Made by a program: the position numbers and the translations under genes. The notes beneath the pieces were generated by a model. It did no database searches. It was not told the DNA's origin and was given only the letters and a program-made list of their open reading frames with translations. A stretch of 64,000 nt of DNA from NCBI GenBank assembly GCA_035544015.1, contig DATKIP010000076.1, positions 256,299-320,298 of the forward strand, read 5' to 3'. This stretch comes from Candidatus Saccharimonadia bacterium (lineage in GTDB: Bacteria > Patescibacteriota > Saccharimonadia > UBA4664). How positions within the stretch are numbered: the stretch's first letter is position 1; every line of letters starts with the position of its first letter. Shown here piece by piece: positions 2,225 through 60,484 of this stretch.

Positions 2225-2304
2225 AGTAATGAAATCTCCTTTTGGCTTCATTAATACCAAAGAAGAATGAACTGTTTATTAATTAAGTACCGGTTTCAAT
2301 ATGG

Positions 2305-4317: not shown

Positions 4318-4337
4318 ATCTATACTCCTATTATTAA

Positions 4338-33557: not shown

Positions 33558-33593
33558 AAAAAATGACACAAAGTGTCAAAAATTCCCCATGCA
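33558..33593. repeat. Copy 1 of a conserved AT-rich palindromic element (AAAAAATGACA-N5-TGTCAAAAAT + TCCCCATGC)
   Basis: Near-identical to the elements at about 44195 and 60455. Lies between the convergent GNAT and S8 protease genes. Approximate coordinates. Confidence 0.6.
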
Positions 33594-36358: not shown

Positions 36359-39300
36359 CTAATCCTCGCGCTCGCACCAAGCGCGCGCATTCTGAAACAT
36401 CCGCAGCCACGGACTCGCCTCAAACCCCTGCCATTCCGTCGGCAGCCACGGCCACTGCCATAGCGCATTGGCCATGCGCTCCGGGTGCGGCATCATGGCC
36501 AGATGGCGGCCGTCGGGTGAGCACAGCGCCGTGATGCCTTCGGGGCTGCCGTTGGGGTTAAACGGATAGGCCGTGGTCGGCCCGCCGTCGGGCTCCACAA
36601 AGCGCAGGGGCGCCAAATTGCCCGCACGAATATCGCGCAGCACCTCCGGCGTCGGCACGTGCAGCCGGCCTTCGCCGTGCGCCACCCATACCCCGAGCCG
36701 CGAGCCCTCCATGCCAGCGAGCATGATCGCCGGGCTCGGTCCAATCTCTACCGTTGCCAGCCGCGACTCAAACCGGCCCGACGCGTTCTGCACAAACCGC
36801 GGCTTCTCGTCGTCCGGCAGCTGCGCAAACGGCGCCCAACCCAACAGTGCCATGAGCTGCGCCCCGTTGCATACGCCGAGCGAAAACGTGTCGGTGCGGG
36901 CATAAAAGCTCGCAAACTGATCCGCCAGGACCGGGTTAAATCGAATGACTCCGGCCGAACCCTTACCCGCGTCGAGCACGTCGCCAAAGGAAAACCCACC
37001 CGGAAACGCCACGCCGCGAAATTGCTCCAACCCCACGCTGCCCGTTAGCAAATCGCTCATGGTAACGTCCCAGGCCTCAAAACCGGCCGCCACAAACGCC
37101 GCCGCCATCTCGCGGTCGCCGTTGGTGCCGGCTTCGCGCAGCACCGCCACCTTGGGCGCCGCCAATCCCGGCCCAATAACGGTCGCCGCGGAGGGCGAGA
37201 CCGGCTTAAAGGTCAAATGCCAGCGCGGATTCACGCGCGGCGCGGCCATCACCGCCGCCTCATCGGCCACCAGTTTGGGGTTGGCCTGGAGCGCGTCGAG
37301 TCGGCTACTAGTGGCTTCCCAGAGCCCGCGCAGCTCGTGCAGCGGTACATCGACCAGCGCGTGGCCGCCGGCGCTCACGCGCACCGGAGCGCCCGCCTCG
37401 CCCACGCGCCCCACCGTGGTGTGCGCTACGCCGTCGCTGTCGAGCTCAGCCCGCACTGCCTCGGCCGCGGCCGGCGCCACTTCGAGCAGCACGCCCAGTT
37501 CTTCGCAAAACAGTGCCGCCAGCGGCTCCTCCGCACCCGGCAGCTCAAGCTCCAGGCCCAGGTTACCCGCCAGTGCCATCTCGATAGCCGTCACCACCAA
37601 GCCGCCGTCGCTGCGGTCGTGGAGCGCGCGCACGCGACCGCGCCGAATCAGCCCCTGCACGCTCACAAACGCTTGCCCCAGCACGGCCGGGTCATCGAGG
37701 TCGGGCGCCTCGTCGCCGATTTGCCCGTAGGCCTGCGCCAGCGCCGAGCCACCCAGCCGTGTGTGCCCGCCGCTCAAATCTACCAATATCAAAACATTGC
37801 CCGCACCCTTAAAATCGGGCGTGATTTTTTGGCGTACGTCCGGCATCACCGCATACGGCGCTACCACCAGCTGCCCCGGCGCCTTCACCATACCCCCTGG
37901 GGTTTGAGCGGCCATCGAGAGGCTGTCCTTGCCACCGTCCACCGCCATCCCCAGCGCGGTCATGGTGTCGCTCATGGCGACCGCCGCTTCATAGAGCCGC
38001 GCGCCCTCGCCCTCGAGCTTGGCCGGCCACATCCAGTTGGCGCTGGCCCGCACATCGCCCAGGTCCGAAATCCGCGCGCCCATCAGGTTGGTAATCGCCT
38101 CGCCCACCGTCATGCGGCCCTGCGCGCCCGGCGAGACCAGCCCAATGAGCGGCCGCTCGCCCTGGCTCACCACGGTACCGCTGTTGCCAAAGAGGCTATG
38201 CGCCACCACGCCGTAATCCGCCAGCGGGGTCTCGAGCGGTCCCACCCCTTGCTGCTGCGCGACGAGCCCGGTCACGCTCCGGTCAACCTTGCGCGTCAGC
38301 CAGCTTTTGGAGCCCACGCTCACCAGCCGCAGTACCCGCTCGAGCGCCTGGCGCACCGTCAGGTCGGCGGGCAACTTCAGCGGCCGCAGCACTGGCGGCT
38401 GCGTGGTGAGCTCCACCGTTTTGGCCACCGAGTCACCCAAGACAGCCTCAAGCGGCAGGTTTACCGGCGTCGTATCGTCGGTCGCATCGTGCACCACCAG
38501 CTGCCCATCACCGGTGATTTCGCCCACCACTGCCACCGGCGCTTTCTCGCGCGCGCAAATTGCCTCAAACCGCGCCAAATCCTCGGGCCGCAGTAGCAGC
38601 GCATCGCGCTCCTGCGATTCATTGCCCCAGATTTCCAGCACCGACAGCGTGGCGTCGCCCACCGGAATCGCGCGTAGCTCGATACGCCCGCCCACGGGGT
38701 TGGCAATCTCCGGCAGGGCATTCGAATCGCCGCCGGCGCCTAAATCGTGCGCCGACACAATCGGGTTACTCGCGCCCAGCTCCACGCAGGTGCGAATCAC
38801 GCGCCCCAGCCGCTGCTCCATCTCGGGGTCGCCGCGTTGCACCGCATTAAAATCGAGGGCCGCCGAGTTGTCACCGCTCATGAGCGAGCTGGCCGCACCT
38901 CCGCCCATGCCGATCCGGTACGCCGGGCCACCCACCTGCACGATGAGCATTCTTGGCTCGGGAAGGCCTTTTTCGGCATGATTCGCATCAAGCATACCCA
39001 CGCCCTCGCTGTACATCACCGGCTTAAACCATGCCCGGTAGCCGCCCGGCGTGGTTTGGCCGAACGTCCGCACGTGTCCCAAGAGCACCGGCTCGCCAAA
39101 GCAGTTACCGTAATCCGAGGCGCCATTCGAAGCCTCGATCAGAATGTCGAGCGGCGAAGCCAAATTCTCCGGATGCGCCACGCCGTCTTTCTCCCAGGGC
39201 AGTTCGTAGCCGGGAATGTGCAAATTCCCCACGCTGTAGCCCACCCCGCTCGCCACCACTAGGCCACCCCGCCCCACCGCCTGATTGTCGCGAATCCGCC

Positions 39301-40246
39301 CGCCGGTACCCGTGGCCGCGCCCGGGTACGGCGCAATACCCGTCGGGAAGTTGTGGGTTTCGGCCGTGAGCGTGGGATGATACGTGCGGTCGTCGATCAC
39401 AAATCGACTCGCCTCACCCGGCCGGCCTGGCGCCATCACATGCACCCGCCGACCCTCGATAGCCGAACTATCGTCGTGAAATGCGATCACCGAATTATTC
39501 GGGTTGGCCCGCCACGGCGCCTTCACGATCTTCATGAGGCTCGTATCGAGCGGCCGGCCGTCAAGCACCAAGCTACCCCGAAAAAACCCGTGCCGCGCGT
39601 GCTCATTATTGGCTTGGCCAAGGGAAAATATCTCAACATCCGTCGGGTCACGCTGCAACCGATTTACGAATAATTCCGCGTAACTGGCCATATCCTGCTC
39701 ATCCATAGCCAGCCCAAATTCCTGGTTGGCCCGGCGCAGCGCCTCGATACCGTCGCGCAGTACCGGCACGGTGCGCACCGGCTCCGGCGCCCCGCTCACC
39801 GCCAGCGTGGCCGGCGCCTCATGGTACGGCTGCTGGGTCATGCGGTCGGCCAGCGCCGCCTCGAGCTGGCCGCGCTCATCCGGCCCCAGCCGCTTCGAAA
39901 ATCCCAGCCGCCGTGCCCGCTCAATCCGGATCACGCTGTCAAGCCCCACCGCTCGGCAAATCTGGCGCGCGGTACTCGCCCACGGCGTCTCAAAGTTCAG
40001 TCGCGGTCCGATCTCGATCACGCTCGGATGCTCGGTCAAAAAAGACGCCTCGCGCGTCCCCCAAGGGTCAAATGTCTCGCCGAGCAGCCACTGGAGCTGC
40101 CCAATTTCGCCTTCGCTGAGCTGCCGCGCCGTCTCCACGTAATACACCCACTCGGCCTGTACTGACCGCGGCGCCGCGATTCCAGCCGCTTCCAGTTGGC
40201 TCAATTCACGCGCCCGCAGTTTGTCTCGGCGATGAAACTTGTACAC
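36359..40246 (-). CDS. purL: Phosphoribosylformylglycinamidine synthase, single-chain large form
   Basis: 1295 aa, collinear with E. coli-type PurL including the C-terminal glutaminase domain (GVCNGAQLMALLG, MMPHPER). Confidence 0.9.
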   Translation of the reverse strand: MYKFHRRDKLRARELSQLEAAGIAAPRSVQAEWVYYVETARQLSEGEIGQLQWLLGETFDPWGTREASFLTEHPSVIEIGPRLNFETPWASTARQICRAVGLDSVIRIERARRLGFSKRLGPDERGQLEAALADRMTQQPYHEAPATLAVSGAPEPVRTVPVLRDGIEALRRANQEFGLAMDEQDMASYAELFVNRLQRDPTDVEIFSLGQANNEHARHGFFRGSLVLDGRPLDTSLMKIVKAPWRANPNNSVIAFHDDSSAIEGRRVHVMAPGRPGEASRFVIDDRTYHPTLTAETHNFPTGIAPYPGAATGTGGRIRDNQAVGRGGLVVASGVGYSVGNLHIPGYELPWEKDGVAHPENLASPLDILIEASNGASDYGNCFGEPVLLGHVRTFGQTTPGGYRAWFKPVMYSEGVGMLDANHAEKGLPEPRMLIVQVGGPAYRIGMGGGAASSLMSGDNSAALDFNAVQRGDPEMEQRLGRVIRTCVELGASNPIVSAHDLGAGGDSNALPEIANPVGGRIELRAIPVGDATLSVLEIWGNESQERDALLLRPEDLARFEAICAREKAPVAVVGEITGDGQLVVHDATDDTTPVNLPLEAVLGDSVAKTVELTTQPPVLRPLKLPADLTVRQALERVLRLVSVGSKSWLTRKVDRSVTGLVAQQQGVGPLETPLADYGVVAHSLFGNSGTVVSQGERPLIGLVSPGAQGRMTVGEAITNLMGARISDLGDVRASANWMWPAKLEGEGARLYEAAVAMSDTMTALGMAVDGGKDSLSMAAQTPGGMVKAPGQLVVAPYAVMPDVRQKITPDFKGAGNVLILVDLSGGHTRLGGSALAQAYGQIGDEAPDLDDPAVLGQAFVSVQGLIRRGRVRALHDRSDGGLVVTAIEMALAGNLGLELELPGAEEPLAALFCEELGVLLEVAPAAAEAVRAELDSDGVAHTTVGRVGEAGAPVRVSAGGHALVDVPLHELRGLWEATSSRLDALQANPKLVADEAAVMAAPRVNPRWHLTFKPVSPSAATVIGPGLAAPKVAVLREAGTNGDREMAAAFVAAGFEAWDVTMSDLLTGSVGLEQFRGVAFPGGFSFGDVLDAGKGSAGVIRFNPVLADQFASFYARTDTFSLGVCNGAQLMALLGWAPFAQLPDDEKPRFVQNASGRFESRLATVEIGPSPAIMLAGMEGSRLGVWVAHGEGRLHVPTPEVLRDIRAGNLAPLRFVEPDGGPTTAYPFNPNGSPEGITALCSPDGRHLAMMPHPERMANALWQWPWLPTEWQGFEASPWLRMFQNARAWCERED

Positions 40247-40358: not shown

Positions 40359-40925
40359 ATGACCAAACTCGCCGTGATGGTGTCGGGCGTGGGCTCGATA
40401 CTCGAGGCTATACTCGAATCCGGCCTCCAGGTATCGTTGGTAGTGGCCGACCGCCAGTGTCGCGGGCTCAAATTGGCGGCCGATGCCGGGATTCCGGTCG
40501 AGCTCGTCGAACGTAGCAACTACGGCCATAGCTTCGACCGCCTGGCCTATTCACACCGCCTCGCCGGCGTGCTCAAAGCCCACCACATCGATCTTGTCGC
40601 CATGGCCGGCTTCATGACCGTCCTCGATAAGCCGATTTTTGACCATTACGAAGGCAAAATCCTCAACACCCACCCCTCGCTTCTGCCGGCCTTTGCAGGC
40701 GAACGAGCGGTGCAAAATGCCCTCGATTACGGCGTCAAATTGACCGGCTGCACCATCCACATCGCCACCATCAAGCTCGATGACGGCCCCATTTTGGCCC
40801 AGGAAGCCGTGCCGGTATTGGCCGGCGACACGGCCGAATCGCTCCAGGAGCGCATCAAGCAAGTGGAGCGCCGGCTGTATCCCGAAACTATCCGCCACCT
40901 AATCACGAAAGCGAGCCCCGTATGA
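40359..40925 (+). CDS. purN: Phosphoribosylglycinamide formyltransferase
   Basis: 188 aa: LAVMVSGVGSILEAIL, N-10-formyl-THF binding block NTHPSLLPAFAG, HxxD. Confidence 0.85.
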   Translation: MTKLAVMVSGVGSILEAILESGLQVSLVVADRQCRGLKLAADAGIPVELVERSNYGHSFDRLAYSHRLAGVLKAHHIDLVAMAGFMTVLDKPIFDHYEGKILNTHPSLLPAFAGERAVQNALDYGVKLTGCTIHIATIKLDDGPILAQEAVPVLAGDTAESLQERIKQVERRLYPETIRHLITKASPV

Positions 40926-42025
40926 GTAAACCCGGCCTCAAATACGCCGACACCGGCGTTGATTATAGCGCCCTCGACCCCTTTAAGCGCCTCGCCCAGA
41001 CGGCGGCCGCCCAGACCGCCGGCAATGCCCAGCGCCTCGGTTTCACCGAGCTATCATCGAGTCGCGGCGAGAGCGCCTACCTCATTGAGGCCGCCGACCA
41101 CTTCATCGCTCATGTCGAGGAGGGTCTCGGCACCAAAAACCTCGTGGCCGACGCCGTGCATGAGCTCACCGGCCGCCAGTATTATGACGCCATCGCCCAA
41201 GACACCGTCGCCATGATCGTCAATGACATGATCACGCTCGGCGCGCTGCCGGTCTCGGTGGCCATGCACGCCGGCGTCGGCGACACACGCTGGTTTGCCG
41301 ACGAGGCCCGCGCCGCCAGCCTCGTGGCCGGCTGGAAGCACGCCTGCGACCTGGCGCGCGCCGTGTGGGGCGGCGGCGAGTCGCCCGGGCTCACCGGCGT
41401 GGTGGAGCCCCACGCCGTGGTGCTGGCCGGATCGGCCGTGGGCGTCATCAAGCCCAAAGACCGCCTCATCACCGGCAACATCGCCGCCGGCGATGCCATC
41501 GTGATGTTTGCCAGCACCGGCATCCACGCCAACGGCCTGTCGCTGGCCCGCAAAATCGCCCAGTCCACCGGCTACGACGCCACCTTGAGCGACGGCCGCA
41601 CCTACGGCGAGGCGCTCCTCGATCCCACGCATATCTATGTCCCCGTTATCGAGGACGTGCAGGAGGCGGGCATCAAACTCCATTACGCCGTCAACATTAC
41701 CGGCCACGGCTGGCGCAAGCTCATGCGCGCCGTCGAGCCGTTTGTGTACGAAATCGACACCATCCCCGAGCCGCAGCCGGTCTTCACCTTCATGCAGGAG
41801 CACGGCCCGGTCGACGACGCCGAAGCCTACGGCAACTTCAATATGGGCGCCGGTTTCGCCGTGTACGCTCGCCCCGAAGACGTCGCTCGCATCATCGAAG
41901 TCGCCGCCAGCCATAGCATCAAGGCGTGGCTAGCGGGAACTATCCGCAAAGACGCAGATCAGAAAAAGGTCGTCATCAAGCCAAAAAACCTAACGTACGA
42001 AGGAGACTCACTCGGTGTCCGCTAA
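40922..42025 (+). CDS. purM: Phosphoribosylformylglycinamidine cyclo-ligase (AIR synthase)
   Basis: 367 aa. YADTGVDYSALD N-terminus, AIRS and AIRS_C domain blocks. 4-nt overlap with purN. Confidence 0.9.
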   Translation: MSKPGLKYADTGVDYSALDPFKRLAQTAAAQTAGNAQRLGFTELSSSRGESAYLIEAADHFIAHVEEGLGTKNLVADAVHELTGRQYYDAIAQDTVAMIVNDMITLGALPVSVAMHAGVGDTRWFADEARAASLVAGWKHACDLARAVWGGGESPGLTGVVEPHAVVLAGSAVGVIKPKDRLITGNIAAGDAIVMFASTGIHANGLSLARKIAQSTGYDATLSDGRTYGEALLDPTHIYVPVIEDVQEAGIKLHYAVNITGHGWRKLMRAVEPFVYEIDTIPEPQPVFTFMQEHGPVDDAEAYGNFNMGAGFAVYARPEDVARIIEVAASHSIKAWLAGTIRKDADQKKVVIKPKNLTYEGDSLGVR

Positions 42026-43454
42026 CCGCCCCCTCATCCCCAATGTCCTAGCCGACCGCTACGCGTCCGTTCCCATGCTCGAATTATGGACCGACGAAGC
42101 CCGCGTGGTGCGCGAACGCCGGTTTTGGCTGAGCGTGCTGCGTTCACAAATCAAGCACGGCCACGATGCGCCTGCCGGAGCCGTGGCCGACTATGAGAAG
42201 GTGATCGACCAGGTCGACCTCGCCTCCATTCGCCGCCGCGAGCTGCGGCTCCACCACGACGTAATGGCGCGTATCGAGGAATTCAACGCTCTCGCCGGCC
42301 ACGAGCTCGTCCACGTGGGCCTCACCTCGCGCGACGTCACCGAAAACACCGAGCAGGCGGCTATTCGCGACTCACTCACCCTGATGCATGGCCGGCTAGT
42401 GGGCACCCTGGCCCGCCTCGACCGCCTCGCCCGCGAGTATCGCGACCTGCCCGTGGCCGGCCGCAGCCACAACGTGCCGGCGCAGGTCACCACGCTCGGC
42501 AAACGTTTCGCCACCGCCGGCGAGGAGTTACTCCTGGGCATTGAGGCGCTCGAGGATTTGCAGGCGCGGTACCCGCTGCGCGGCATTAAGGGCCCCATGG
42601 GCACGGCCGCCGACCAGCTGCAGGTGCTCGGCGGCGACCCGGCCGCCGTCGGCGCCCTCGAGGCCGACATCGCCGCCGAGCTCGGTTTCGAGCATGTCTT
42701 CGGCAGCGTCGGCCAAGTGTACCCGCGCTCGCTCGATCTGGCCGCGGTCGACGCACTCATCCGCGCGCTAGCGCCGCTCTCAAGCCTCGCCACCACCATC
42801 CGCCTCATGGCCGGCAACGGCCAAGCCACCGAAGGCTTTGCCAAGGGCCAGGCCGGTTCCAGCGCCATGCCGCACAAAATGAACGCCCGCTCCTGCGAGC
42901 GCGTCCACGGCCTCTACGCTGTGCTCGGCGGCAGTCACGCGCAGCTAGCGGCCATCACCGGCGACCAATGGTACGAAGGCGACGTCACCTGCTCGGTGGT
43001 GCGCCGGGTCGCTCTGCCCAATGCCTTCTTCGCAGCCGACGGCCTGGTGCAGACCATGCTCGCCGTACTCGATTCGTTTGGCGCCTACCCGGCCGTCATC
43101 ACGGCCGAGCTCACTACCTACCTACCGTTCCTAGCCAGCTCCAAAATCCTCATGGCCGCAGTCGCGGGGGGTGTCGGCCGCGAAACCGCCCACGCCGCCA
43201 TCAAGGAGCACGCCACGGCCGTGGCCAAGGCCATGCGCGAATCCGGCGCCACCACCAACAACCTCGTCGACCGCCTCGCCGCCGACGACCGCCTCGGCCT
43301 CACCGCCGCCGAGCTCACCAGCCTCATCCACGCCGAGCCGCTCAGCTTCGCCGGCCTGGCCCGCGAGCAAGTCGACACCTTCCACGCCCGCGCCGCCACC
43401 GTCCTCGAAGCCCACCCCGAAGCCGCCAAATATGTACCGGAAGCAGTACTTTAG
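42015..43454 (+). CDS. purB: Adenylosuccinate lyase
   Basis: 479 aa, fumarate-lyase family with the signature region GSSAMPHKMN. Overlaps the purM stop. Confidence 0.9.
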   Translation: MSANRPLIPNVLADRYASVPMLELWTDEARVVRERRFWLSVLRSQIKHGHDAPAGAVADYEKVIDQVDLASIRRRELRLHHDVMARIEEFNALAGHELVHVGLTSRDVTENTEQAAIRDSLTLMHGRLVGTLARLDRLAREYRDLPVAGRSHNVPAQVTTLGKRFATAGEELLLGIEALEDLQARYPLRGIKGPMGTAADQLQVLGGDPAAVGALEADIAAELGFEHVFGSVGQVYPRSLDLAAVDALIRALAPLSSLATTIRLMAGNGQATEGFAKGQAGSSAMPHKMNARSCERVHGLYAVLGGSHAQLAAITGDQWYEGDVTCSVVRRVALPNAFFAADGLVQTMLAVLDSFGAYPAVITAELTTYLPFLASSKILMAAVAGGVGRETAHAAIKEHATAVAKAMRESGATTNNLVDRLAADDRLGLTAAELTSLIHAEPLSFAGLAREQVDTFHARAATVLEAHPEAAKYVPEAVL

Positions 43455-43521
43455 CGAACCATCACGCTAGGGTATAGCGGGGTTGTCCTGTTTTGTAATA
43501 CCTCTAGTGCTGCAACAGTAG

Positions 43522-44160
43522 TTACTCTATAAAACCAGCAGCCTTTGCCTCTGCTTCCAGCCGTAGCGTCTGTGCAGTGATAGTCTCATACAACCTAGCG
43601 TCAACTGTCTTCGCAAAAGGCAAATAGAAATTCTTCGTTTCATCGAGGTAGATCGTGACCAGCTCTTTACCAAATGTCATTGCCCAGTGGAGATTATCAA
43701 TCCTATCTAAAAGCTTAATAATTTTTGCTTCGTGTGGTGCAGATTGAAGGTTTTTAAAATACGCTCCATTGACTCTCTGGCGCTTCTGAGTTTCGGAAAA
43801 TTGCCCTGCTACGCTTGGCTTAGAAAGCGACATAACAATTTCGCAGATGTGGCTTCCAAAAATACTTCTTAGTTCGGCTTTGGTAAAACTGGCGTCATCT
43901 TCGATGCAATCATGCAGCAAAGCACTGGCAACAAACTCTTCTGTCACCTCGTTTGCTAGAAAATTAATAGTTAAGGTGGTGACGGGGTAAATATGCTCAG
44001 TAAGGTAGGGTTGTCCATCTTCTCGGAGTTGACCGGTGTGCGATTTAATTGCTTGTTCGAGGGCACGCTCAATAAGCGCGGTGAGACCAACTGCGGACCG
44101 ATCGATACGGTTTCTGAGCTCGGCTTCTGTAACACTCTCAGGGATTTGCATTATCTGCAT
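43522..44160 (-). CDS. HD-domain small alarmone hydrolase, (p)ppGpp pyrophosphohydrolase-like (RelA/SpoT HD domain only)
   Basis: ORF trimmed to MQIMQIPESV. Blocks HTGQLREDGQPYLTEHIYPV, ALLHDCIEDD, IIKLLDRIDNLHW match the SpoT/Mesh1 hydrolase domain. Lies in a low-GC island. Confidence 0.6.
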   Translation of the reverse strand: MQIMQIPESVTEAELRNRIDRSAVGLTALIERALEQAIKSHTGQLREDGQPYLTEHIYPVTTLTINFLANEVTEEFVASALLHDCIEDDASFTKAELRSIFGSHICEIVMSLSKPSVAGQFSETQKRQRVNGAYFKNLQSAPHEAKIIKLLDRIDNLHWAMTFGKELVTIYLDETKNFYLPFAKTVDARLYETITAQTLRLEAEAKAAGFIE

Positions 44161-44194
44161 AATAACAGGTTCGAAAGTGATTCCTTGGTTGGGC

Positions 44195-44229
44195 AAAAAA
44201 TGACAAAAATTGTCAAAAATTCCCCATGC
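44195..44229. repeat. Copy 2 of the conserved AT-rich palindromic element (AAAAAATGACAAAAATTGTCAAAAATTCCCCATGC)
   Basis: About 35 nt upstream of the HD-domain gene start and about 12 nt downstream of the PRTase-domain stop. Approximate coordinates. Confidence 0.6.
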
Positions 44230-44240
44230 GACACGCCGGA

Positions 44241-44642
44241 CTATACATTCTCCCAAAAAAAGTGAGGCGGATTTCCGTCGCACGTCTCACCCACGAAGTC
44301 CGGCAGAAGACCACCATTCGAAGCAATTAAGACGCAACTTTTTGCCATACCTCCGCGCTCCCGAACCAGAGCAACCGCCTTGCGCGTGAGCAGCCCGCGC
44401 TTACTCGCGTCATCCACTACTAGTACCCGACGTCCCGTGCAATCGCCCAACGTTGCCAACTCATCGAGATGATAGTCGCCAGTATCGTCCTTGTAGACGG
44501 GCAGACCAATCACGTTCCGGCTACGTATGCCCAGCCGCTTAGCAAGGACGGCCGCCGTCGGAAACCCACCCGTGCTGAGTCCAATGATCGTATCAGGCGC
44601 AAACCCCTCGGCCTCAATTTTGGCAACGACGAGCTCAATAAA
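44241..44642 (-). pseudogene. Gpt-like (xanthine-guanine) phosphoribosyltransferase domain with no start codon of its own, in frame with the upstream hydrolase across a single TAG
   Basis: 133 codons: FIELVVAKIEAEGFAPDTIIGLSTGGFPTAAVLAKRLGIRSRNVIGLPVY...RVLVVDDASKRG..., collinear with E. coli Gpt residues ~13-150. No ATG/GTG/TTG between the TAG (44643-44645) and the conserved core. Same reading frame as 44643..45575. Confidence 0.5.
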
Positions 44643-45575
44643 CTATTTCCCCTTGAGCCAATCTATAATGTCTTGGATTGCTGCCCTGCCCATTTTAGTT
44701 GGGCTTGATGTAAAGCCATGGGCAGCTTCGGGGTAAACTCGTAAATCCACTTCATTGCCGGCCGCTGAAAGCCTAGCAGCCATAGCAAAGCTATCTTCCA
44801 TCAAGATATCTGCCGTACCCACTATTATCAACGCCGGCGGTAAGCCTTTTAAATCGCCATAAAGTGGTGATATATCAGATTGTGTTTTGTCGACAATCTT
44901 TCCAGCATATGCCTGAATAAAATACTCGTCAGCATATAGCCTCCCACCTGGTGTTTGACCGCTCAAATCATATGCACCAAATTGTAAAACTGCACCAACA
45001 AATCGGGCTAAAAGCTTGTCATCACGCAGCCGAAGCAAAGTAGTCATCGCCAATGTTGCGCCTGCTGAAGAACCGCCGATTATAAGGCGTGCTGTTCCAA
45101 ACAATTGCTCAGCTTGCTCAGTCAACCAATGGGCCACAGTAGCACAGTCATCGGGAGCAGCAGGCCAAGGGTCTTCGGGTGCTAGTCGGTACTCAACGCT
45201 TATTACCGCCACTTCTAAAGCATCTGCAAGATAAGCATTTTGTACATCGTTTCTCGCAGCCTCGTTGAGGTAAAAGCCCCCGCCGGGAATATTGAGGTAT
45301 ACACCTTGCGCCTTACCTTTCTTCGGCTGAATTATCCGTACAGGAACTTCTCTGCCATATGCTTCAACAATTGCTTCAGTAATGTTACGGTCTGTTAGCG
45401 TGTCGGATGGTTTACGGGCATCTCGAGCCTCCTGTAGCCCATCAGGAGTAGTCAAATCAGGCTGCTTTTTATTGGGCTTAGCGGCTTTCCTAGCTTCGTA
45501 GAACTGCTTGCTCTCATCTGCAAGAGATTTCATTTCAGGGTCAATAAGCTGGTTTAGTCCGATTTGCATACTCAC
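44643..45575 (-). CDS. Alpha/beta-hydrolase fold-3 esterase/lipase (HSL/Aes-like)
   Basis: 310 aa. HGGG-type oxyanion motif (NIPGGGF), nucleophile elbow GGSSAG, C-terminal His region. Low GC relative to its surroundings. Confidence 0.7.
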   Translation of the reverse strand: MSMQIGLNQLIDPEMKSLADESKQFYEARKAAKPNKKQPDLTTPDGLQEARDARKPSDTLTDRNITEAIVEAYGREVPVRIIQPKKGKAQGVYLNIPGGGFYLNEAARNDVQNAYLADALEVAVISVEYRLAPEDPWPAAPDDCATVAHWLTEQAEQLFGTARLIIGGSSAGATLAMTTLLRLRDDKLLARFVGAVLQFGAYDLSGQTPGGRLYADEYFIQAYAGKIVDKTQSDISPLYGDLKGLPPALIIVGTADILMEDSFAMAARLSAAGNEVDLRVYPEAAHGFTSSPTKMGRAAIQDIIDWLKGK

Positions 45576-45693
45576 TTATTATACTGTGGTTTGGCTTCTG
45601 ATTGATTAACCATCCCTGCCCGATTGCCCAGGTACCGCTTGTGTCGCCGTTGGGTTAAAATAATCTAGAAAGCTAGTGAAGGAGCCACAAACC

Positions 45694-46176
45694 ATGACCC
45701 TCGTACACATCGTTCTCGGCAGCGCCAGCGACCTCGAAGCCGTCAAGGCCGCCGGCATGACCCAAACCCTAGACACCATCGGCATCTCCAGCGCCGTATC
45801 CGTTTGCAGCGCCCACCGTAACCTCGAAGAGCTCGGTACCTTTGCCACCGAAGCCGTCCAAAACGGCGCCCAAGTCTTCATCGGGGTCGCCGGCATGGCC
45901 ACGGCGCTTCCAGGTGCGCTCGCCGGCCTCACCACCATGGCCAAGCCCATCATTGGCGTGCCCCTCGACGAGCACGGCATCGACTCGTGTATCTACATGC
46001 CGCCGGGTGTGCCCGTGCTCACCGCCGGCGTGGGCAAATCCGGGCTCAAAAACGCCGCCATCGCCACGGCCCAAATTCTCGCCGTAAACGACCCCGCCAT
46101 CACCGAAGGCCTAGCCACATTCCTCGCCGCCTCCAAAAAGCAGCCGCAATTCGACATTAAAGAAGGGAGCAAATAA
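45694..46176 (+). CDS. purE: N5-carboxyaminoimidazole ribonucleotide mutase / AIR carboxylase catalytic subunit
   Basis: ORF trimmed to MTLVHIVLGSASDL (AAGGAG SD 9 nt upstream). PurE blocks GSASDL, AHR, GVAGMA. Confidence 0.85.
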   Translation: MTLVHIVLGSASDLEAVKAAGMTQTLDTIGISSAVSVCSAHRNLEELGTFATEAVQNGAQVFIGVAGMATALPGALAGLTTMAKPIIGVPLDEHGIDSCIYMPPGVPVLTAGVGKSGLKNAAIATAQILAVNDPAITEGLATFLAASKKQPQFDIKEGSK

Positions 46177-47018
46177 TGGCAGACGCGCAAGTCAAACTGG
46201 CCGAAGGCAAAACCAAAGTCATCTGGGACGCCGGCGACGGCAAAGTCACGATTGAATCCAAAGACGACATCACCGCCGGAGACGGCGCCAAGCACGATAT
46301 GCTCGAAGGCAAAGCCATCACCGCCAACCAGACCACTTCAAACGTTTTTGCCCTTCTCAAAGCCAAAGGTCTGGCCACCCATTTCATTGAACGCACCGCC
46401 GACCGCGCCTTCAAAGCCCGCTCAGCTAAGATGATCCCGCTCGAGCTCGTCGCCCGCCGCATCGCCACCGGTTCGTATCTCAAGCGCCGGCCGGACGTAA
46501 AGGAAGGCACCATTTTCGGCGATCTCGTGGTGGAATTCTTTGAAAAAGACGACCCCAACCACGATCCTCTGGTGATTTTCGACTTCGTCACCGGGCGCTT
46601 GTTGCGTTATACCGCCAGCAAGCCCCTGGGCGAAGGCTTTATGAACGAACAGCCCCTGGCCGAAACCATATTTAAAGACCTCGACGCCCCCCAAATCCTT
46701 ACCCTGGTGGAGCTCACCAAGCAGGCTTTTGAAGTTCTCGAAGCCGCCTGGGCCGAGCAGGAGGTAACCCTCGTGGACCTCAAAATAGAGGCCGGCCGCG
46801 ACGCCGAAACCGACGAATTATTCATCGCCGACGTGGTCGATAACGACTCCTGGCGCATCTGGCCCGGCGGCGACAAGTCCCAAATGAAAGACAAGCAAGT
46901 TTACCGCAACCTCGCCGGCGTGGACGATCCCGCCGCCAAGGCCAAAGAGCTCGGTAAAATCAAACAAAATTACACCTGGGTGGCCGAAGCCACTGAAAAA
47001 TTCAGCCAGGGCGAATAA
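46176..47018 (+). CDS. purC: Phosphoribosylaminoimidazole-succinocarboxamide synthase (long form)
   Basis: 280 aa. SAICAR synthetase blocks (EGKTKVIW, IPLELVARR, VDLKIE). TAATG overlap with purE. Confidence 0.85.
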   Translation: MADAQVKLAEGKTKVIWDAGDGKVTIESKDDITAGDGAKHDMLEGKAITANQTTSNVFALLKAKGLATHFIERTADRAFKARSAKMIPLELVARRIATGSYLKRRPDVKEGTIFGDLVVEFFEKDDPNHDPLVIFDFVTGRLLRYTASKPLGEGFMNEQPLAETIFKDLDAPQILTLVELTKQAFEVLEAAWAEQEVTLVDLKIEAGRDAETDELFIADVVDNDSWRIWPGGDKSQMKDKQVYRNLAGVDDPAAKAKELGKIKQNYTWVAEATEKFSQGE

Positions 47019-47019
47019 T

Positions 47020-48624
47020 TTGAAATCACGCACCGCCCTCATCTCCGTCTACGACAAAACAGGCATTGCCGACTTTGCCAAGACCCTTACCGAACTCGGG
47101 TGGCAAATTTACTCATCGGGCGGCACCGCCAAGGCGCTCACTGCCGCCGGCGTGCCCGTCACTGACGTAGCCGAGCTCGTAGGCGGAGAGGCGATTCTCG
47201 GCCACCGGGTGGTCACGCTCTCGCGCGAAATCCACGCCGGCCTACTCGCCCGCGACACGCCCGAAGACCGCGCCGAGCTCGAACGCCTCAGGGTGCCGTA
47301 CATCGACCTCGTATGTGTCGATCTCTACCCGCTCTCGGGCGAAATCGCCAAACCCGGCTCCACGCCCGAATCCGTCATCGAGCAAACCGACATCGGCGGC
47401 CCCACCATGCTGCGCTCCGCCGCCAAGGGCCGCCGCATCGTCATCGCCCGACCCCAGCAGCGCACCGAAGTACTCAAATGGCTCCAGGCCGGCGAACCCG
47501 ACGCCGCCACCTTCCGCACCCGCCTCGCCGCCGCGGCCGAAGCCGTAGTCGCCGACTATGCGCTCACTTCGGCCCGCTACACCTCCCGTGGCCTCCACGA
47601 CGGCCTCGTGGGCACCCAAGTCCTAGCCGCCAAATACGGCGAAAACGCCTGGCAAACCCCGGCCGGCCTCCATACCACGGATTCAAACGATCCGCTCGCC
47701 CTCGACCGCTTCGAGCTCGTCGCCGGCGCCGCCCCCAGCTACAACAACCTGGCCGAGCTCGACCGTCATCTCCAAACCATCACCCACATCGCCGCCGGTT
47801 TCGAGCAAAACTTCGGCCGCGTCCCGGCTATCGCCCTCGGCACCAAGCACGGCAACCCCTGCGGCGCCGCCGCGGCCGAAACGCCCGCCGACGCCATCAA
47901 AGCCATGGTCACCGGCGACACCCGCGCCATCTTCGGCGGGCTCGTCAGCACCAACTTCGAAATCGACGAAGCCCTCGCCGAGCTCCTCCTCACTCACTGC
48001 CAACCTGCCGGCCGCCGCCTCCTCGACGCCGTCATCGCGCCATCATTCACGCCCGAAGCCATCGCGCACCTCAGTCGCAAAGGCGACAAATGCCGCTTCC
48101 TCGCCAACCCCGAGCTCGCCAAAATCGGCAAAAATTCCCTCAACTCAGCCCCGCACCTCCGCCCCGTCCGCGGCGGCTTCCTGCGCCAACCCGGTTACAC
48201 ATTCATCCTCGACCTCAAGGATCCCAACCTCACCACCACCGGCACCCTCTCAGGCGACCAAGCCAAAGACCTCATCCTGGCTTGGGCCGTCGGCAGCACC
48301 TCCAACTCCAACACCATCACCCTGGTCAAATCCGGCCAACTCATTGGCAACGGCGTCGGCCAGCAAGACCGTGTGAGCTGCTGCGAGCTCGCGGTCAAAC
48401 GCGCCACCGACGGCCAGCACGACATCACCGGCGCCGTCGCTTACTCCGACAGCTTCTTCCCGTTCCCCGACGGCCCCCAGGTGCTCATCGACGCGGGCAT
48501 CTCAGCTATCTGGTCCACCACCGGCTCCGTCCGCGACCACGAAACCACCGAACTCTGCGCGAAGCACCACGTTGCCCTCTACCAACTCCCCGACACCCAG
48601 GCCCGCGGCTTCTTCGGACACTAA
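47020..48624 (+). CDS. purH: Bifunctional AICAR transformylase / IMP cyclohydrolase
   Basis: 534 aa with a TTG start. ALISVYDKTG N-terminus (MGS-like IMPCH domain) and the C-terminal AICARFT domain. Confidence 0.9.
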   Translation: MKSRTALISVYDKTGIADFAKTLTELGWQIYSSGGTAKALTAAGVPVTDVAELVGGEAILGHRVVTLSREIHAGLLARDTPEDRAELERLRVPYIDLVCVDLYPLSGEIAKPGSTPESVIEQTDIGGPTMLRSAAKGRRIVIARPQQRTEVLKWLQAGEPDAATFRTRLAAAAEAVVADYALTSARYTSRGLHDGLVGTQVLAAKYGENAWQTPAGLHTTDSNDPLALDRFELVAGAAPSYNNLAELDRHLQTITHIAAGFEQNFGRVPAIALGTKHGNPCGAAAAETPADAIKAMVTGDTRAIFGGLVSTNFEIDEALAELLLTHCQPAGRRLLDAVIAPSFTPEAIAHLSRKGDKCRFLANPELAKIGKNSLNSAPHLRPVRGGFLRQPGYTFILDLKDPNLTTTGTLSGDQAKDLILAWAVGSTSNSNTITLVKSGQLIGNGVGQQDRVSCCELAVKRATDGQHDITGAVAYSDSFFPFPDGPQVLIDAGISAIWSTTGSVRDHETTELCAKHHVALYQLPDTQARGFFGH

Positions 48625-51807: not shown

Positions 51808-53097
51808 ATGAAAATAATGAAACATTCCGAAGTCATAGCGGTTATCGGTGGTCAGTGGGGTGATGAGGGCAAGGGCAAGATCGTCGATTATCTTGCCACT
51901 ACCGCCGACGTCGTCATTCGCTCTCAAGGCGGCGATAATGCCGGCCACACCGTTATCAACGACCATGGCAAATTTGGTCTCCACCTCGTACCGGCCGGCA
52001 TTTTTAACCCCCGCACCCTCAACATCATCGGCGCCGGCGTAGCGCTCAATCCCAAAACGCTCATGAAAGAAATTGCCGAGCTCACGCAGCGCGGCGTGTC
52101 GTTCGACAATCTCGTCATTAGTCCCAAATCCCACTTGGCCTTCGAGTACCACCGGTTCATCGACTCGCACCAAGAAGCCGCCCGCGGCGCCAAGCGCATC
52201 GACACCACCAAGCGCGGCATCGGCCCCACCTACATGGACAAGGCCGAACGCATCGGCTTGCACGCTCGCATGCTGCTCTACCCCGACCGCCTGCTGGCCG
52301 AACTCGACGATATTTTGGCTTCCAAAAGGGCCAAACTCGGCGTCGACAACGAGGTGCTCCACGCCGACTACTACGCCGAATTTGTACACGAGGCCGCGGC
52401 CACGCTCAGGCCGTTTATTCGCGACACCGAGGTCCTCGTAGAGGAGCACCTGCACAAGGGCAGCCGTTTTGTGCTCGAAGGCGCCCATGGCACACTGCTC
52501 GACCTCGACCACGGCACCTACCCGATGGTCACCGCTTCCAACTCCACCGCCGGCGGGTTGCTCGTGGGCGCCGGCATGCCACCGCTCGCACTCACCAAGG
52601 TTATTGGCATCTTCAAGGCCTACCAAACCCGCGTGGGCGCCGGCGGCATGCCCACCGAGCTGCACGACGACCTCGCCACCACCATTCGCGAGCGCGGCCA
52701 AGAATTCGGCACCACCACCGGCCGCCCCCGCCGCATCGGCTACTTCGACGGCGTAGCCGCCCGCTACGCCCACCGCCTCAACGGCTTCACCGACATCGCG
52801 CTCACCAAAGTCGATACGTTGGCGGATCTCGGCGAGCTCAAAATCGCCACCGGCTACGAAGATGCCGCCGGCGCTGCCAGCCAGTTCCAGACCGAGGCCG
52901 ATCTATTGGCCAATTGCCATGCCCGCTACCAAACCTTTCCCGGCTGGACCACCGCCGATCTCGCAGGGGTCACTTCCTATGATGCCCTCCCCGAAAGCCT
53001 CAAAGCCTACTGCGCGGCCATCACCGCCACAATGCCCGGTGCCCGGTTGAGCTTTGTGGGGGTTGGCCGGTCTCGCGAACAGCTCATTCGGCTCTAA
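51808..53097 (+). CDS. purA: Adenylosuccinate synthetase
   Basis: 429 aa. GGQWGDEGKGKIVD P-loop, GIGPTY, and TTGRPRR blocks. Start may instead be the ATG at 51817, immediately after a TACAAT -10-like hexamer (leaderless). Confidence 0.9.
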   Translation: MKIMKHSEVIAVIGGQWGDEGKGKIVDYLATTADVVIRSQGGDNAGHTVINDHGKFGLHLVPAGIFNPRTLNIIGAGVALNPKTLMKEIAELTQRGVSFDNLVISPKSHLAFEYHRFIDSHQEAARGAKRIDTTKRGIGPTYMDKAERIGLHARMLLYPDRLLAELDDILASKRAKLGVDNEVLHADYYAEFVHEAAATLRPFIRDTEVLVEEHLHKGSRFVLEGAHGTLLDLDHGTYPMVTASNSTAGGLLVGAGMPPLALTKVIGIFKAYQTRVGAGGMPTELHDDLATTIRERGQEFGTTTGRPRRIGYFDGVAARYAHRLNGFTDIALTKVDTLADLGELKIATGYEDAAGAASQFQTEADLLANCHARYQTFPGWTTADLAGVTSYDALPESLKAYCAAITATMPGARLSFVGVGRSREQLIRL

Positions 53098-56112: not shown

Positions 56113-57663
56113 CTAGGAATCTTGGCCGCCCTTCTCGGCCACCACGCGCAAAATTCCCGCCCCGTACGTCTCCACCTTCTTCGCGCCAAATCCCGGCACT
56201 CGCAGCAGCTCCTGCTCGCTGGCCGGCTTGCGTGCCGCCAGCTCCGCCAACGTCTTGTCGTGCGCGATGATGTACGCCGGCATGCCCAGCTCCCGTGCCT
56301 GCTCAGCCCGCCACGCCCGCAGCGCCTCAAACAGCCCCGGGTCGGCCGCCGTCGCCATCACATCTTTCACCTCGTCGGGCTTCCAGGCCGCAATCTGAGT
56401 CGCAAACTCGGTCCGCGCCCGCTCGCTGGCGGTCCGCAAATCCGCGTCGATCTGCTTCGCCAGCGGGCTCACCCGCAGCGCCATGCCGTTGAGGCCGTCG
56501 AGCCGCAAATGCTCCAGGCTGCGTACCCGCGACAGCGCCACGTACCCCATGCCCTCAACAAACGCCCGACTCAAATCAATCCGCGCCGCATCCAGCGTCA
56601 TGCCCTGGCTTTTGTGCACCGTAATCGCCCACGCCAGCCGCAGCGGCAGCTGCTCCAGGCTGGCCCGCCGTTTGTCGCCGTCCATGAGCTCCCAGGTTTC
56701 CGGTCGCACCGTCAGTGTCCGCCCCGACACGAGCTCCACCACCGGATAATCCATGCGCTCTTCAAAACCCACCACCGTGCCCAGCGACCCATTCGCAAAC
56801 GACCGGTCCTGCGCATTCTTAATGAACATCACCCGCGCCGCCAATTTGAGCTCCAGTATCGCCGGCGCCAGGCACGACCGTTGCAGCTGCTCCACGTAAT
56901 TTTTGCCCCCGTGCGTCCCCATGTCGTAGCGGTGCACCTCGCCCGCCAGGCCGCGCAGCTCGGCCGCGTTCACGCTGTCCACATCCACATTCACCGTCAG
57001 TAGCCGTGTCTGCTCGGCGGCCGCGTCGTGGCTGCCGTCGCGCGCCCGCAACGTATCGAGCTGTCCGCGTGTGAGCACGCCGGCCCGGATCCCGTTCAAA
57101 ATGGCCGTGTACGCCTCGTCTTCAGTTTGCCGATATTGTTTTTCCAGATAGCACACCGCAAACCCGGCCCGCTGCCACGCCTCCGACAAAATCACAAATC
57201 CGCCCTCCCGACCATCGCGCCGATTCACCGGCGGCAACTGGAAAAAGTCCCCACACAAAATCACCTGCAACCCCCCGAACGGCGCCTCGCTTTCGCGCAC
57301 CGTCCGCAGCGCCTCATCCACCATATCCAGCCGAAAATCGTGCAGCATACTAATCTCGTCGATCACAAGCACGTCCGCCCGCCGCATCAAATCCTGCCGC
57401 GACTGCGCCAATTTGCCCGCCATGTGCCGGTCAAAATAATCATGCACCCCAATGCCCGACCACGCGTGAATCGTGGTGCCGTGCAAATGCGTCGCCGCCA
57501 GCCCCGTGGTCGCCGTCACCGCCACGCTCAATCCTCGCCGCTTGGCGCGCCGAATAAACTCGTTGAGCACATACGTCTTGCCCGTACCCGCCGCGCCCGT
57601 CAGCAGCGCCGATTGCCCAGACTCCAAAATCGCCAACGCCTCACTCTGTGTCATGAGCACCAT
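56113..57663 (-). CDS. PIF1/RecD-like ATP-dependent DNA helicase (AAA_30 + UvrD_C_2) with a C-terminal helix-hairpin-helix-like tail
   Basis: 516 aa. Walker A LTGAAGTGKT, Walker B VLVIDEISM, helicase motifs through ITVHKSQGMT. C-terminal ~70 aa with PGFGAKK. Confidence 0.75.
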   Translation of the reverse strand: MVLMTQSEALAILESGQSALLTGAAGTGKTYVLNEFIRRAKRRGLSVAVTATTGLAATHLHGTTIHAWSGIGVHDYFDRHMAGKLAQSRQDLMRRADVLVIDEISMLHDFRLDMVDEALRTVRESEAPFGGLQVILCGDFFQLPPVNRRDGREGGFVILSEAWQRAGFAVCYLEKQYRQTEDEAYTAILNGIRAGVLTRGQLDTLRARDGSHDAAAEQTRLLTVNVDVDSVNAAELRGLAGEVHRYDMGTHGGKNYVEQLQRSCLAPAILELKLAARVMFIKNAQDRSFANGSLGTVVGFEERMDYPVVELVSGRTLTVRPETWELMDGDKRRASLEQLPLRLAWAITVHKSQGMTLDAARIDLSRAFVEGMGYVALSRVRSLEHLRLDGLNGMALRVSPLAKQIDADLRTASERARTEFATQIAAWKPDEVKDVMATAADPGLFEALRAWRAEQARELGMPAYIIAHDKTLAELAARKPASEQELLRVPGFGAKKVETYGAGILRVVAEKGGQDS

Positions 57664-60454: not shown

Positions 60455-60484
60455 AAAAAATGACAAAAAATGTCAAAAATCACC
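60455..60484. repeat. Copy 3 of the conserved AT-rich palindromic element (AAAAAATGACAAAAAATGTCAAAAAT)
   Basis: About 70 nt downstream of the AlkA-like gene and about 130 nt upstream of the gene starting at 60615. Followed by an AT-rich promoter-like stretch. Approximate coordinates. Confidence 0.6.

Follow-up and report, generated by a model that had tools for sequence, protein, structure and literature searches.

Small alarmone hydrolases (SAHs) are stand-alone, horizontally mobile modules that occur sporadically in archaea, including archaea without a synthetase (PMC3153485). They are often linked with toxic small alarmone synthetases, and an orphan SAH has been found to shield Xanthomonas in interbacterial competition (PMC9765508). 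Described SAHs include Mesh1/MESH1, the Pseudomonas aeruginosa SAH (6YVC), Corynebacterium glutamicum RelH (7QOC/7QOD) and Xanthomonas XccSAH. Here we describe a gene of this predicted class that lies, together with an esterase gene and the remnant of a phosphoribosyltransferase (PRTase) gene, in a low-GC tract between purB and purE of a Candidatus Saccharimonadia bacterium. The tract resembles genomic islets, which are small acquired patches of DNA without mobility genes, in its anomalous GC content and codon usage, in the empty site seen in a relative, in its cargo of mixed origin, and in the gene remnant at an internal junction. It lacks the integrase, tRNA anchor, and direct repeats of genomic islands, and it departs from the islets in sitting antisense inside a biosynthetic operon rather than at a typical hotspot.

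We analyzed a 64,000-nucleotide stretch of DNA (the window; positions 256,299 to 320,298 of contig DATKIP010000076.1 in assembly GCA_035544015.1), which has a mean GC content of 0.598 (59.8%). It belongs to a 320-kb metagenome contig (ENA ERZ27251635 k141_318506), and NCBI places its proteins in a Candidatus Saccharimonadia metagenome-assembled genome (MAG). In our judgment, the tract is likely to be a mosaic patch of horizontally acquired DNA in the purB-purE spacer of this high-GC genome, with two intact genes that are independent of each other and a position in the purine locus that is incidental. The parts of the tract are as follows.

43455-45693, no strand: inserted low-GC tract of 2239 bp, from the purB stop codon to the purE start codon (GC profile, GC content of the segments, and empty site in a relative)
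43522-44160 (44151), - strand: stand-alone RelA/SpoT-type HD hydrolase gene of the predicted SAH class (Pfam HD_4, motifs, AlphaFold2, and Foldseek)
44195-44229, + strand: tract copy of a short AT-rich element, AAAAAATGACAAAAATTGTCAAAAAT then TCCCCATGC, with a 27-nt core at 44195-44221 (pattern match and alignment of three copies)
44241-44639, - strand: 5'-truncated Gpt-like type I PRTase remnant with 132 readable codons (Pfam Pribosyltran, frame translation, and homologue alignment)
44643-45575, - strand: intact hormone-sensitive-lipase (HSL)-family (family IV) carboxylesterase gene (Pfam Abhydrolase_3, 149.7 bits against a cut-off of 25, E = 1.3e-43)

The sequence-only reading of this DNA had noticed a low-GC island between purB and purE. 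The GC profile, taken in 300-bp windows, fell from 0.62-0.71 at the 3' end of purB to 0.41-0.51 over about 43400-45800 and returned to 0.61-0.66 in purE. From the purB stop codon (43454) to the purE start (45694) the GC content was 41-57%, whereas the flanks had 60-68%. Within the tract there was a single bump, reaching 0.59 at 44300-44600. No other low-GC tract of the 64-kb window was as long or as deep. Segment by segment, the GC content was 0.448 for the HD gene, 0.566 for the PRTase remnant, and 0.474 for the esterase gene, and the GC content at third codon positions (GC3) was 0.43, 0.59, and 0.39, respectively. The 43 other open reading frames (ORFs) of the window had a mean GC3 of 0.736 (standard deviation, 0.073; minimum, 0.571). 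Measured against these ORFs, the GC3 z scores were -4.2 for the HD gene, -1.9 for the PRTase remnant, and -4.75 for the esterase gene; the z scores for codon usage were -4.6, -2.0, and -5.8. The island therefore stood up to both the GC and the codon-usage checks, most strongly in the HD and esterase genes. Because all other ORFs across the 64 kb are GC3 rich, high GC is the norm of this genome and the tract is the outlier. The converse, a native low-GC tract surrounded by foreign high-GC DNA, was rejected on the same grounds, the high GC3 shared by all 43 other ORFs. The tract is a compositional mosaic with at least three segments. It contains three genes only, all on the - strand and antisense to the pur operon.

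The closest available relative was a metagenome contig (L099; OCTA010046463.1, 3.3 kb, 55% GC) recovered by a metagenome scan with purC. It carries the order purB-purE-purC-purH, and the four encoded proteins are 75, 67, 71, and 79% identical, respectively, to those of the window. The purB stop codon of L099 is TAA, and 38 bp later, behind AGGAGG, comes the purE start; in the window the same two points lie 2239 bp apart. Two more distant loci (L119 and L120) also show adjacency of purB, purE, and purC. Since the spacer of L099 is only 38 bp long, the tract is an insertion, and a contiguous operon split by the tract is the parsimonious reading of these gene orders. Neither flanking gene is shortened, and purE still has a Shine-Dalgarno sequence of its own, GAAGGAG.

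42015-43454, + strand: purB (adenylosuccinate lyase), the intact left flank (Pfam Lyase_1 and ADSL_C; GC3 of 0.84; 75% identical to L099 purB)
45694-46176, + strand: purE (aminoimidazole ribonucleotide carboxylase/mutase), the intact right flank (Pfam AIRC; called as 160 aa; 67% identical to L099 purE)

Comparison with a syntenic pur locus, together with the foreign composition, thus favored the earlier proposal that the island had been horizontally acquired and inserted into the pur operon: the island is absent from L099, and in the relatives we did not find the same genes at the same site with native composition. A purB search of species-representative genomes returned no close relative and so says nothing on the presence or absence of the tract, and a metagenome scan with a lineage-specific 236-aa hypothetical protein encoded beside purH found nothing. 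A second assembly, Logan SRR8863102, matched a 14.6-kb segment with the tract in it at 100% identity; this assembly came from a different pipeline but possibly from the same reads.

The PRTase remnant, in the middle of the tract, matched Pribosyltran with an E value of 1.5e-10 (41 bits against a cut-off of 26.3). This match conceals a beheaded gene. The PRTase frame has no ATG, GTG, or TTG from the TAG of the esterase gene (44643-44645, in frame) up to codon 44, and about 17 N-terminal residues are missing. The homologues, about 50 in number, with 58-70% identity and lengths of 145-156 aa, carry 17-18 more residues at this end (consensus, M....IVTLDKFN.LLD); where a source is named, it is Saccharimonadales or Saccharibacteria. 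Neither a motif search nor tblastn found the missing N-terminus elsewhere in the window, and we therefore rejected the idea that the esterase gene was inserted into the PRTase gene with the 5' part left beyond it. The loop that binds phosphoribosyl pyrophosphate (PRPP), VLVVDDASKRG, is retained. As judged by its sequence, the remnant is probably inactive.

How close this family comes to Gpt was examined with profiles. The NCBIfam XPRT model matched the remnant at 2.8e-6, with 27 bits against a cut-off of 138, and an orotate-PRTase-like family scored higher. The best solved relatives of the family profile were the Pyrococcus horikoshii purine PRTase 1VDM (1.5e-6), Sulfolobus GpT-1 (4TRB), and, weakly, XPRT. 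"Gpt-like" therefore seems a fair description of the family if it is meant loosely. The remnant shares with the Gpt-type and archaeal 6-oxopurine PRTases (1VDM, GpT-1 4TRB, and enterobacterial XPRT) the type I fold signature and the acidic PRPP loop, and complete proteins of its family likewise run to about 150 aa. The window copy differs from these enzymes in lacking about 17 N-terminal residues and a start codon, and it falls far below the XPRT cut-off. What holds of the earlier description of a Gpt-like PRTase is the type I domain and its loose likeness to 1VDM, GpT-1, and XPRT; the one correction is that the gene is not intact, because the 5' end and the start codon are lost. Elsewhere, an intact PRTase homologue on a Saccharimonadales contig (L013 8001-8456) has 61% GC and a GC3 of 0.75 in surroundings of 51% GC, and another, also on a Saccharimonadales contig (L010), has a low GC content of 41% and a GC3 of 0.22. 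The PRTase family, too, may move between genomes.

The alpha/beta-hydrolase gene named by the sequence-only reading proved to be an intact Abhydrolase_3 esterase gene. It can start at GTG 45575, giving 310 aa, or at ATG 45569, giving the 308 aa called by NCBI. Its translation contains the nucleophile elbow GGSSAGA, the oxyanion-hole stretch PGGG, TADILMED with the Asp, and AAHGF with the His, and it would accordingly be read as a cytosolic family IV carboxylesterase. Abhydrolase_3, a GSSAG elbow, PGGG, and the C-terminal Asp and His are common to this protein and the HSL family IV esterases (LipP1, GTSAG, and GESAG subfamilies). The window esterase differs in that its elbow is GSSAG and not GTSAG, GESAG, or GCSAG, and in that its matches to NCBIfam LipP1 and the HSL subfamilies all fall below the cut-offs. 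Its relatives are a metagenomic protein (79% amino acid identity, on a contig of 45% GC), a Ktedonosporobacter protein (75%), and a Saccharimonadales MAG protein (72%), with others at 74-76%; the nearest relatives (72-79%) are on contigs of 45-53% GC. DNA homology to one related locus (L179) stops at the borders of the esterase gene.

The esterase TAG abuts codon ~18 of the PRTase in the same frame (...DWLKGK*FIELVVAKIE..., window 44639-44648). This abutment could be a chance event, expected once in three, or what is left of the recombination by which the two segments were joined. TAG closes purB as well, which makes it an ordinary stop codon in this DNA. Read-through of the TAG is the only obvious route by which the PRTase could be used, and it would give an esterase-PRTase fusion. 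In the tblastn searches, one alignment of the PRTase extended across the TAG into the esterase C terminus; we take this extension to be due to chance, because this stretch has homology to other esterases as far as the stop codon.

The HD gene can start at ATG 44160, giving 212 aa, or at ATG 44151, giving 209 aa, and the second start is preferred by NCBI and by the homologues. HD_4 (Pfam, E = 2e-13) is the sole domain of the protein apart from a weak generic HD match. The NCBIfam spoT_relA model matched at 8e-17 over profile positions 1-146 of 687 only, that is, in its N-terminal region, and the protein has no synthetase, TGS, or ACT domain. The hydrolase motifs of the RelA/SpoT homologue (RSH) family comprise an Arg in HD1, a His in HD2, His-Asp in HD3, Glu-Asp in HD4, Asp-Arg/Lys in HD5, and an Asn in HD6 (PMC9293644). 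All six are kept in the HD protein, as R43, H53, H80-D81, E84-D85, D149-R150, and N153 (209-aa numbering), and with the exception of D85 these residues are invariant across a 10-sequence alignment of the family. An AlphaFold2 model built from the same alignment had a predicted local distance difference test (pLDDT) score of 95.9 and a predicted template-modeling (pTM) score of 0.92. When the model was compared with PDB by Foldseek, the top 40 matches were all Rel, SpoT, SAH, Mesh1, or (p)ppApp hydrolase domains, each with a probability of 1.00. The earlier description of an HD-only RelA/SpoT-type hydrolase is borne out by the single HD_4 domain and by these fold matches, and no loss of Mesh1/SpoT catalytic residues counts against it.

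The HD protein resembles the described SAHs in having a single HD_4 domain and about 210 aa. Its all-helical predicted fold superposes on the stand-alone enzymes P. aeruginosa SAH, C. glutamicum RelH, and MESH1 with target-normalized template-modeling scores of 0.73-0.81, and like XccSAH it is an orphan with no synthetase gene adjacent. Among PDB sequences, the best match was Drosophila Mesh1 (3NQW, 1e-10), followed by SpoT, Rel, and SAHs; the E values of the Rel and SpoT hydrolase domains trail that of Mesh1 by at most two orders of magnitude. Because its identity to all solved members is 19-27%, the protein is not clearly nearer to any of the named SAH subgroups (Mesh1, Mesh1-L, paSpo, pbcSpo, rickSpo, and others) and is not placeable in one. 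It differs from the solved SAHs also in its own subfamily, which has members on DPANN-like archaeal contigs and in Saccharimonadales. An exhaustive search for this subfamily counted 342 cluster representatives at E <= 1e-10, of which only five reached E <= 1e-30; most of the 342 are stand-alone and about 200 aa long.

In single domain, motifs, and predicted fold alike, the HD protein would thus be classed as a SAH. Its activity is most likely Mn2+-dependent 3'-pyrophosphohydrolysis of (p)ppGpp and/or (p)ppApp. By analogy with the characterized orphan SAHs, it may have a side activity on NADPH-type 3'-phosphorylated nucleotides; dephosphorylation of NADPH has been shown for the orphan SAH of Xanthomonas (PMC9765508). 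Most Saccharibacteria are reported to be equipped to make (p)ppGpp (PMC6031116), and our literature search found no link between SAHs and Saccharibacteria. No RelA_SpoT synthetase domain was detected among the called genes of 36.2-57.0 kb (about 7 kb either side of the tract) or in the 20 further large ORFs of the window that were scanned. In place of the HD gene, which they miss, the ENA gene calls for the contig have a fragment of 52 aa and an antisense ORF of 90 aa; these spurious ORFs, at L001 7347-7505 and 7818-8090, correspond to window 43522-43680 and 43993-44265. NCBI has the 209-aa protein. That one pipeline overlooked the HD gene entirely, and that a PRTase domain match can hide a gene without its 5' end, are cautions for annotation.

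We scanned 18 loci containing homologues by tblastn with the three proteins, with 6-8 kb of context on each side where the contig allowed. In none of these loci did any two of the HD, PRTase, and esterase genes occur together; each was found in its own loci only, and the HD and PRTase genes were never neighbors in the seven HD loci or the five PRTase loci of other organisms. Two of the closest HD homologues with context (51 and 44% identity; L003 8001-8621 and L008 2898-3530) are on clearly archaeal contigs of 31-36% GC, which carry NMD3, a TFS-type zinc ribbon, eIF-1A, eIF-2 beta, RIO1, and topoisomerase VI. A homologue with 40% identity, on a Saccharimonadales contig (L005 7315-9181), lies between a 5'-nucleotidase (NT5C) gene and NUDIX genes and has 38% GC in surroundings of 51%. 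This distribution suggests that the HD subfamily has spread horizontally and repeatedly. The named relatives of the PRTase sit in unrelated contexts. Nearest relatives thus differ among the three genes: the HD gene has them on contigs of archaea and Saccharimonadales, the PRTase on those of Saccharimonadales, and the esterase in bacteria of soil, which counts against a unit acquired together.

Searches for marks of mobility and regulation gave few hits. At the borders of the tract there is no direct or inverted repeat of at least 12 nt, and the only word shared by the junctions is the 7-nt AACCATC. Rfam gave no match in the window at gathering thresholds and none in the tract at E <= 1 (purine, PRPP, ppGpp, and ZTP riboswitches were considered), and PADLOC gave no match to a defense system. 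PHROGs returned generic HD, PRTase, and esterase families only, the HD protein matching phrog_990 at 2e-18. A promoter and terminator scan produced weak consensus matches only, none of them on the + strand upstream of purE.

The short AT-rich palindromic element that the sequence-only reading had placed inside the island is indeed there. The pattern AAAAAATGACA-N5-TGTCAAAAAT has three exact 25-nt matches in the window, against 0.01 expected, all on the + strand. An exact pattern search of the window gave these copies.

33558-33592, + strand: element copy
44195-44229, + strand: element copy within the tract
60455-60481, + strand: element copy

The first two copies (33558 and 44195) extend by TCCCCATGC. 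Where the GC content steps between the PRTase and HD segments, the tract copy lies 11 nt past the stop codon of the PRTase remnant and some 35-45 nt ahead of the HD start. The element was absent from all fetched loci of other organisms. Its - strand contains TTGACA, with no consistent -10 hexamer after it. The hairpin is weak (5-6 bp, with a folding energy no better than that of shuffled sequence), and we rejected a strong intrinsic terminator for that reason. The copies are found past the stop codons of two - strand genes and before the starts of two others, and neither role fits all of them; an operator and a weak terminator are possibilities.

The sequence-only reading had gone further and proposed that the alarmone hydrolase and the Gpt-type PRTase are a single mobile module, cooperating in purine homeostasis and selected for its position in the pur operon. 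Gpt/Hpt-type enzymes are known (p)ppGpp targets in Escherichia coli and Bacillus subtilis. The proposal gains from the HD protein keeping all of its catalytic motifs, from the loose likeness of the PRTase family to Gpt (XPRT, 2.8e-6), from the open 132-codon frame of the remnant with its conserved residues kept, and from the adjacency of the two genes on the same strand inside the pur cluster. It founders, in our view, on a PRTase without its first ~17 residues and start codon, on the unequal GC3 of the two genes (0.43 against 0.59, with 0.39 for the esterase), on their failure to be neighbors in other organisms, on the want of mobility genes or repeats, and on the fact that 40% of the tract is an unrelated esterase gene. 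We consider such a co-acquired regulatory module very unlikely. Because the PRTase is truncated, the compositions differ, the genes do not co-occur, and there is no mobility gene, tRNA, or repeat, we regard placement inside the pur locus as incidental. A low-GC tract of another organism, joined into the pur locus by chimeric metagenome assembly, might be suspected from the metagenomic origin of the contig and the abrupt GC change at both borders. We give this scarcely any credence: the same 14.6 kb is identical in the Logan assembly, both junctions fall neatly in the purB-purE spacer with the genes intact, the tract, being a mosaic in its own right, has one segment of 57% GC, and it holds a 27-nt element found otherwise only in high-GC parts of this genome. 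The element speaks for this part of the tract having been drawn into the signals of the genome itself, and against an assembly chimera. It is nearly as hard to believe that the genes are native, long-resident, and AT rich and that L099 lost them by deletion. That history would accommodate the near-native GC3 of the PRTase (0.59, against a native minimum of 0.57), the Saccharimonadales or Saccharibacteria origin of the named members of its family, and the genome-specific element. It sits badly with HD and esterase genes that are 4-6 standard deviations off native codon usage and have their nearest relatives in archaea and unrelated soil bacteria. The operon-type 38-bp spacer of L099 and the adjacency of purB and purE in distant lineages also fit an ancestral state better than a precise deletion.

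Two further explanations concern the HD gene. Instead of a housekeeping regulator, its product might be an immunity- or antitoxin-type hydrolase that detoxifies the (p)ppApp or (p)ppGpp of a toxic small alarmone synthetase (toxSAS), which would be either the cell's own toxin-antitoxin partner or an effector that competitors or hosts inject. The hydrolases of toxSAS-SAH pairs are stand-alone, horizontally spreading members of the same superfamily; the reported linkage of SAHs with toxic synthetases and the protection of Xanthomonas by an orphan SAH (PMC9765508) are in line with this, as are the (p)ppApp hydrolase 7SMG among the fold matches, the similar HD proteins in phage families (phrog_990), and the horizontal mobility of the gene. 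The window HD gene differs from such pairs in having no synthetase partner nearby, within the genes and ORFs scanned, and no match to a defense system in PADLOC, and its homologues lie beside housekeeping and nucleotide-hydrolase genes (NT5C, NUDIX, and PfkB) and not beside toxins. We regard this role as improbable. Slightly less so, though still speculative, is that the gene represents an uncharacterized RelA/SpoT-type subfamily exchanged between DPANN-like archaea and Saccharimonadia of the Candidate Phyla Radiation (CPR), which are ultra-small episymbionts from the two domains, functioning as a scavenging or detoxifying 3'-(pyro)phosphatase rather than in stringent-response control. Its substrates would then be, just as tentatively, host-derived alarmones or NADPH- and CoA-type nucleotides. 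To our knowledge, archaea generally make no (p)ppGpp, and the NT5C-HD-NUDIX cluster of nucleotide-hydrolase genes in a Saccharimonadales genome fits a scavenging role. More widely, an HD lineage common to DPANN-like archaea and Saccharimonadia would be handy for asking what the poorly understood orphan SAHs do, and organisms that depend on the nucleotides of a host are where the function of this subfamily could be asked.

Returning to the mosaic patch of acquired DNA, which we favor, such a tract was probably assembled in more than one step. The Gpt-like PRTase gene, with its intermediate GC content, would be the older piece; its segment looks the oldest because it is nearest to the native composition and has the genome-specific element after it. 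A low-GC esterase gene would then have replaced the 5' end of the PRTase gene, leaving a promoterless, start-less remnant, and a low-GC HD hydrolase gene would have come to lie on the 3' side of the PRTase. The HD and esterase proteins most likely work independently. The purine locus would have served as a tolerated site between two genes with their own translation signals. If this is true, the tract is a small, clean example of the stepwise build-up of foreign genes inside an essential biosynthetic operon in a CPR bacterium whose genome is reduced, and the empty site and the internal gene remnant record the order of events.

Several observations pull the other way. The proteins of L099 are only 67-79% identical to those of the window, so that the time of insertion is loosely bounded. 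The genome-specific 27-nt element inside the tract means that part of it either has been resident long enough to gain a local signal or is not foreign. The PRTase remnant has changes at 4 of 66 conserved columns, and since the 44 homologues compared average 2.4 and reach 11 at most, this is no excess; either the truncation is very recent or the fragment is still translated or used somehow. For lack of such an excess, decay of the PRTase is not demonstrable, and it is the truncation alone that argues for inactivity. No integrase or transposase is encoded among the tract genes and no tRNA or transfer-messenger RNA gene lies in the window, and neither these nor flanking repeats account for the entry of the DNA. 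Finally, we found no donor with near-identical DNA, the best DNA match being 78% and confined to the esterase gene.

The tract may also bear on expression of the genes downstream, since it parts purE-purC-purH from purN-purM-purB with 2.2 kb of antisense genes. Because the scan found no + strand promoter consensus upstream of purE, expression of purE-purC-purH would depend on read-through over 2.2 kb of antisense DNA or on an unrecognized promoter at the right end of the tract. It is conceivable, but we would not expect it, that the antisense landing ended the coupling of these two groups of genes in a CPR lineage with the unusual trait of still making purines de novo. The remaining pur genes around the tract are listed here.

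36359-40246, - strand: purL
40359-43454, + strand: purN, purM, and purB, left of the tract
45694-48624, + strand: purE, purC, and purH, right of the tract
51817-53097: purA, farther along from the pur cluster

The genes purL, purN, purM, purB, purE, purC, purH, and purA thus share one neighborhood in a Saccharimonadia MAG. Saccharibacteria are usually described as incapable of de novo nucleotide synthesis (PMC6031116), and actinobacterial hosts support the growth of cultivated Saccharimonadia (PMC9166423). Among 185,579 species-representative genomes, the best purB matches were from Actinomycetota, with 56-62% identity. An actinobacterial-looking purB and actinobacterial hosts are hints that the purine pathway may have been acquired in an old transfer. 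Arguably, the island is less unusual than its host genome, which belongs to a Saccharimonadia of 60% GC and has a nearly complete set of genes for de novo purine synthesis.

Two other loci of the window were noted. At 185-6350 on the - strand, three paralogous genes lie in tandem beside genes for glycosyltransferases and polysaccharide export. Their products, 670-691 aa long, all carry a pectate-lyase-like (Pect-lyase_RHGA_epim) domain in the N-terminal part, and the locus probably serves surface polysaccharide or adhesion. At 56113-57663, also on the - strand, lies a gene for a 516-aa PIF1-family helicase with a fused C-terminal HRDC domain.

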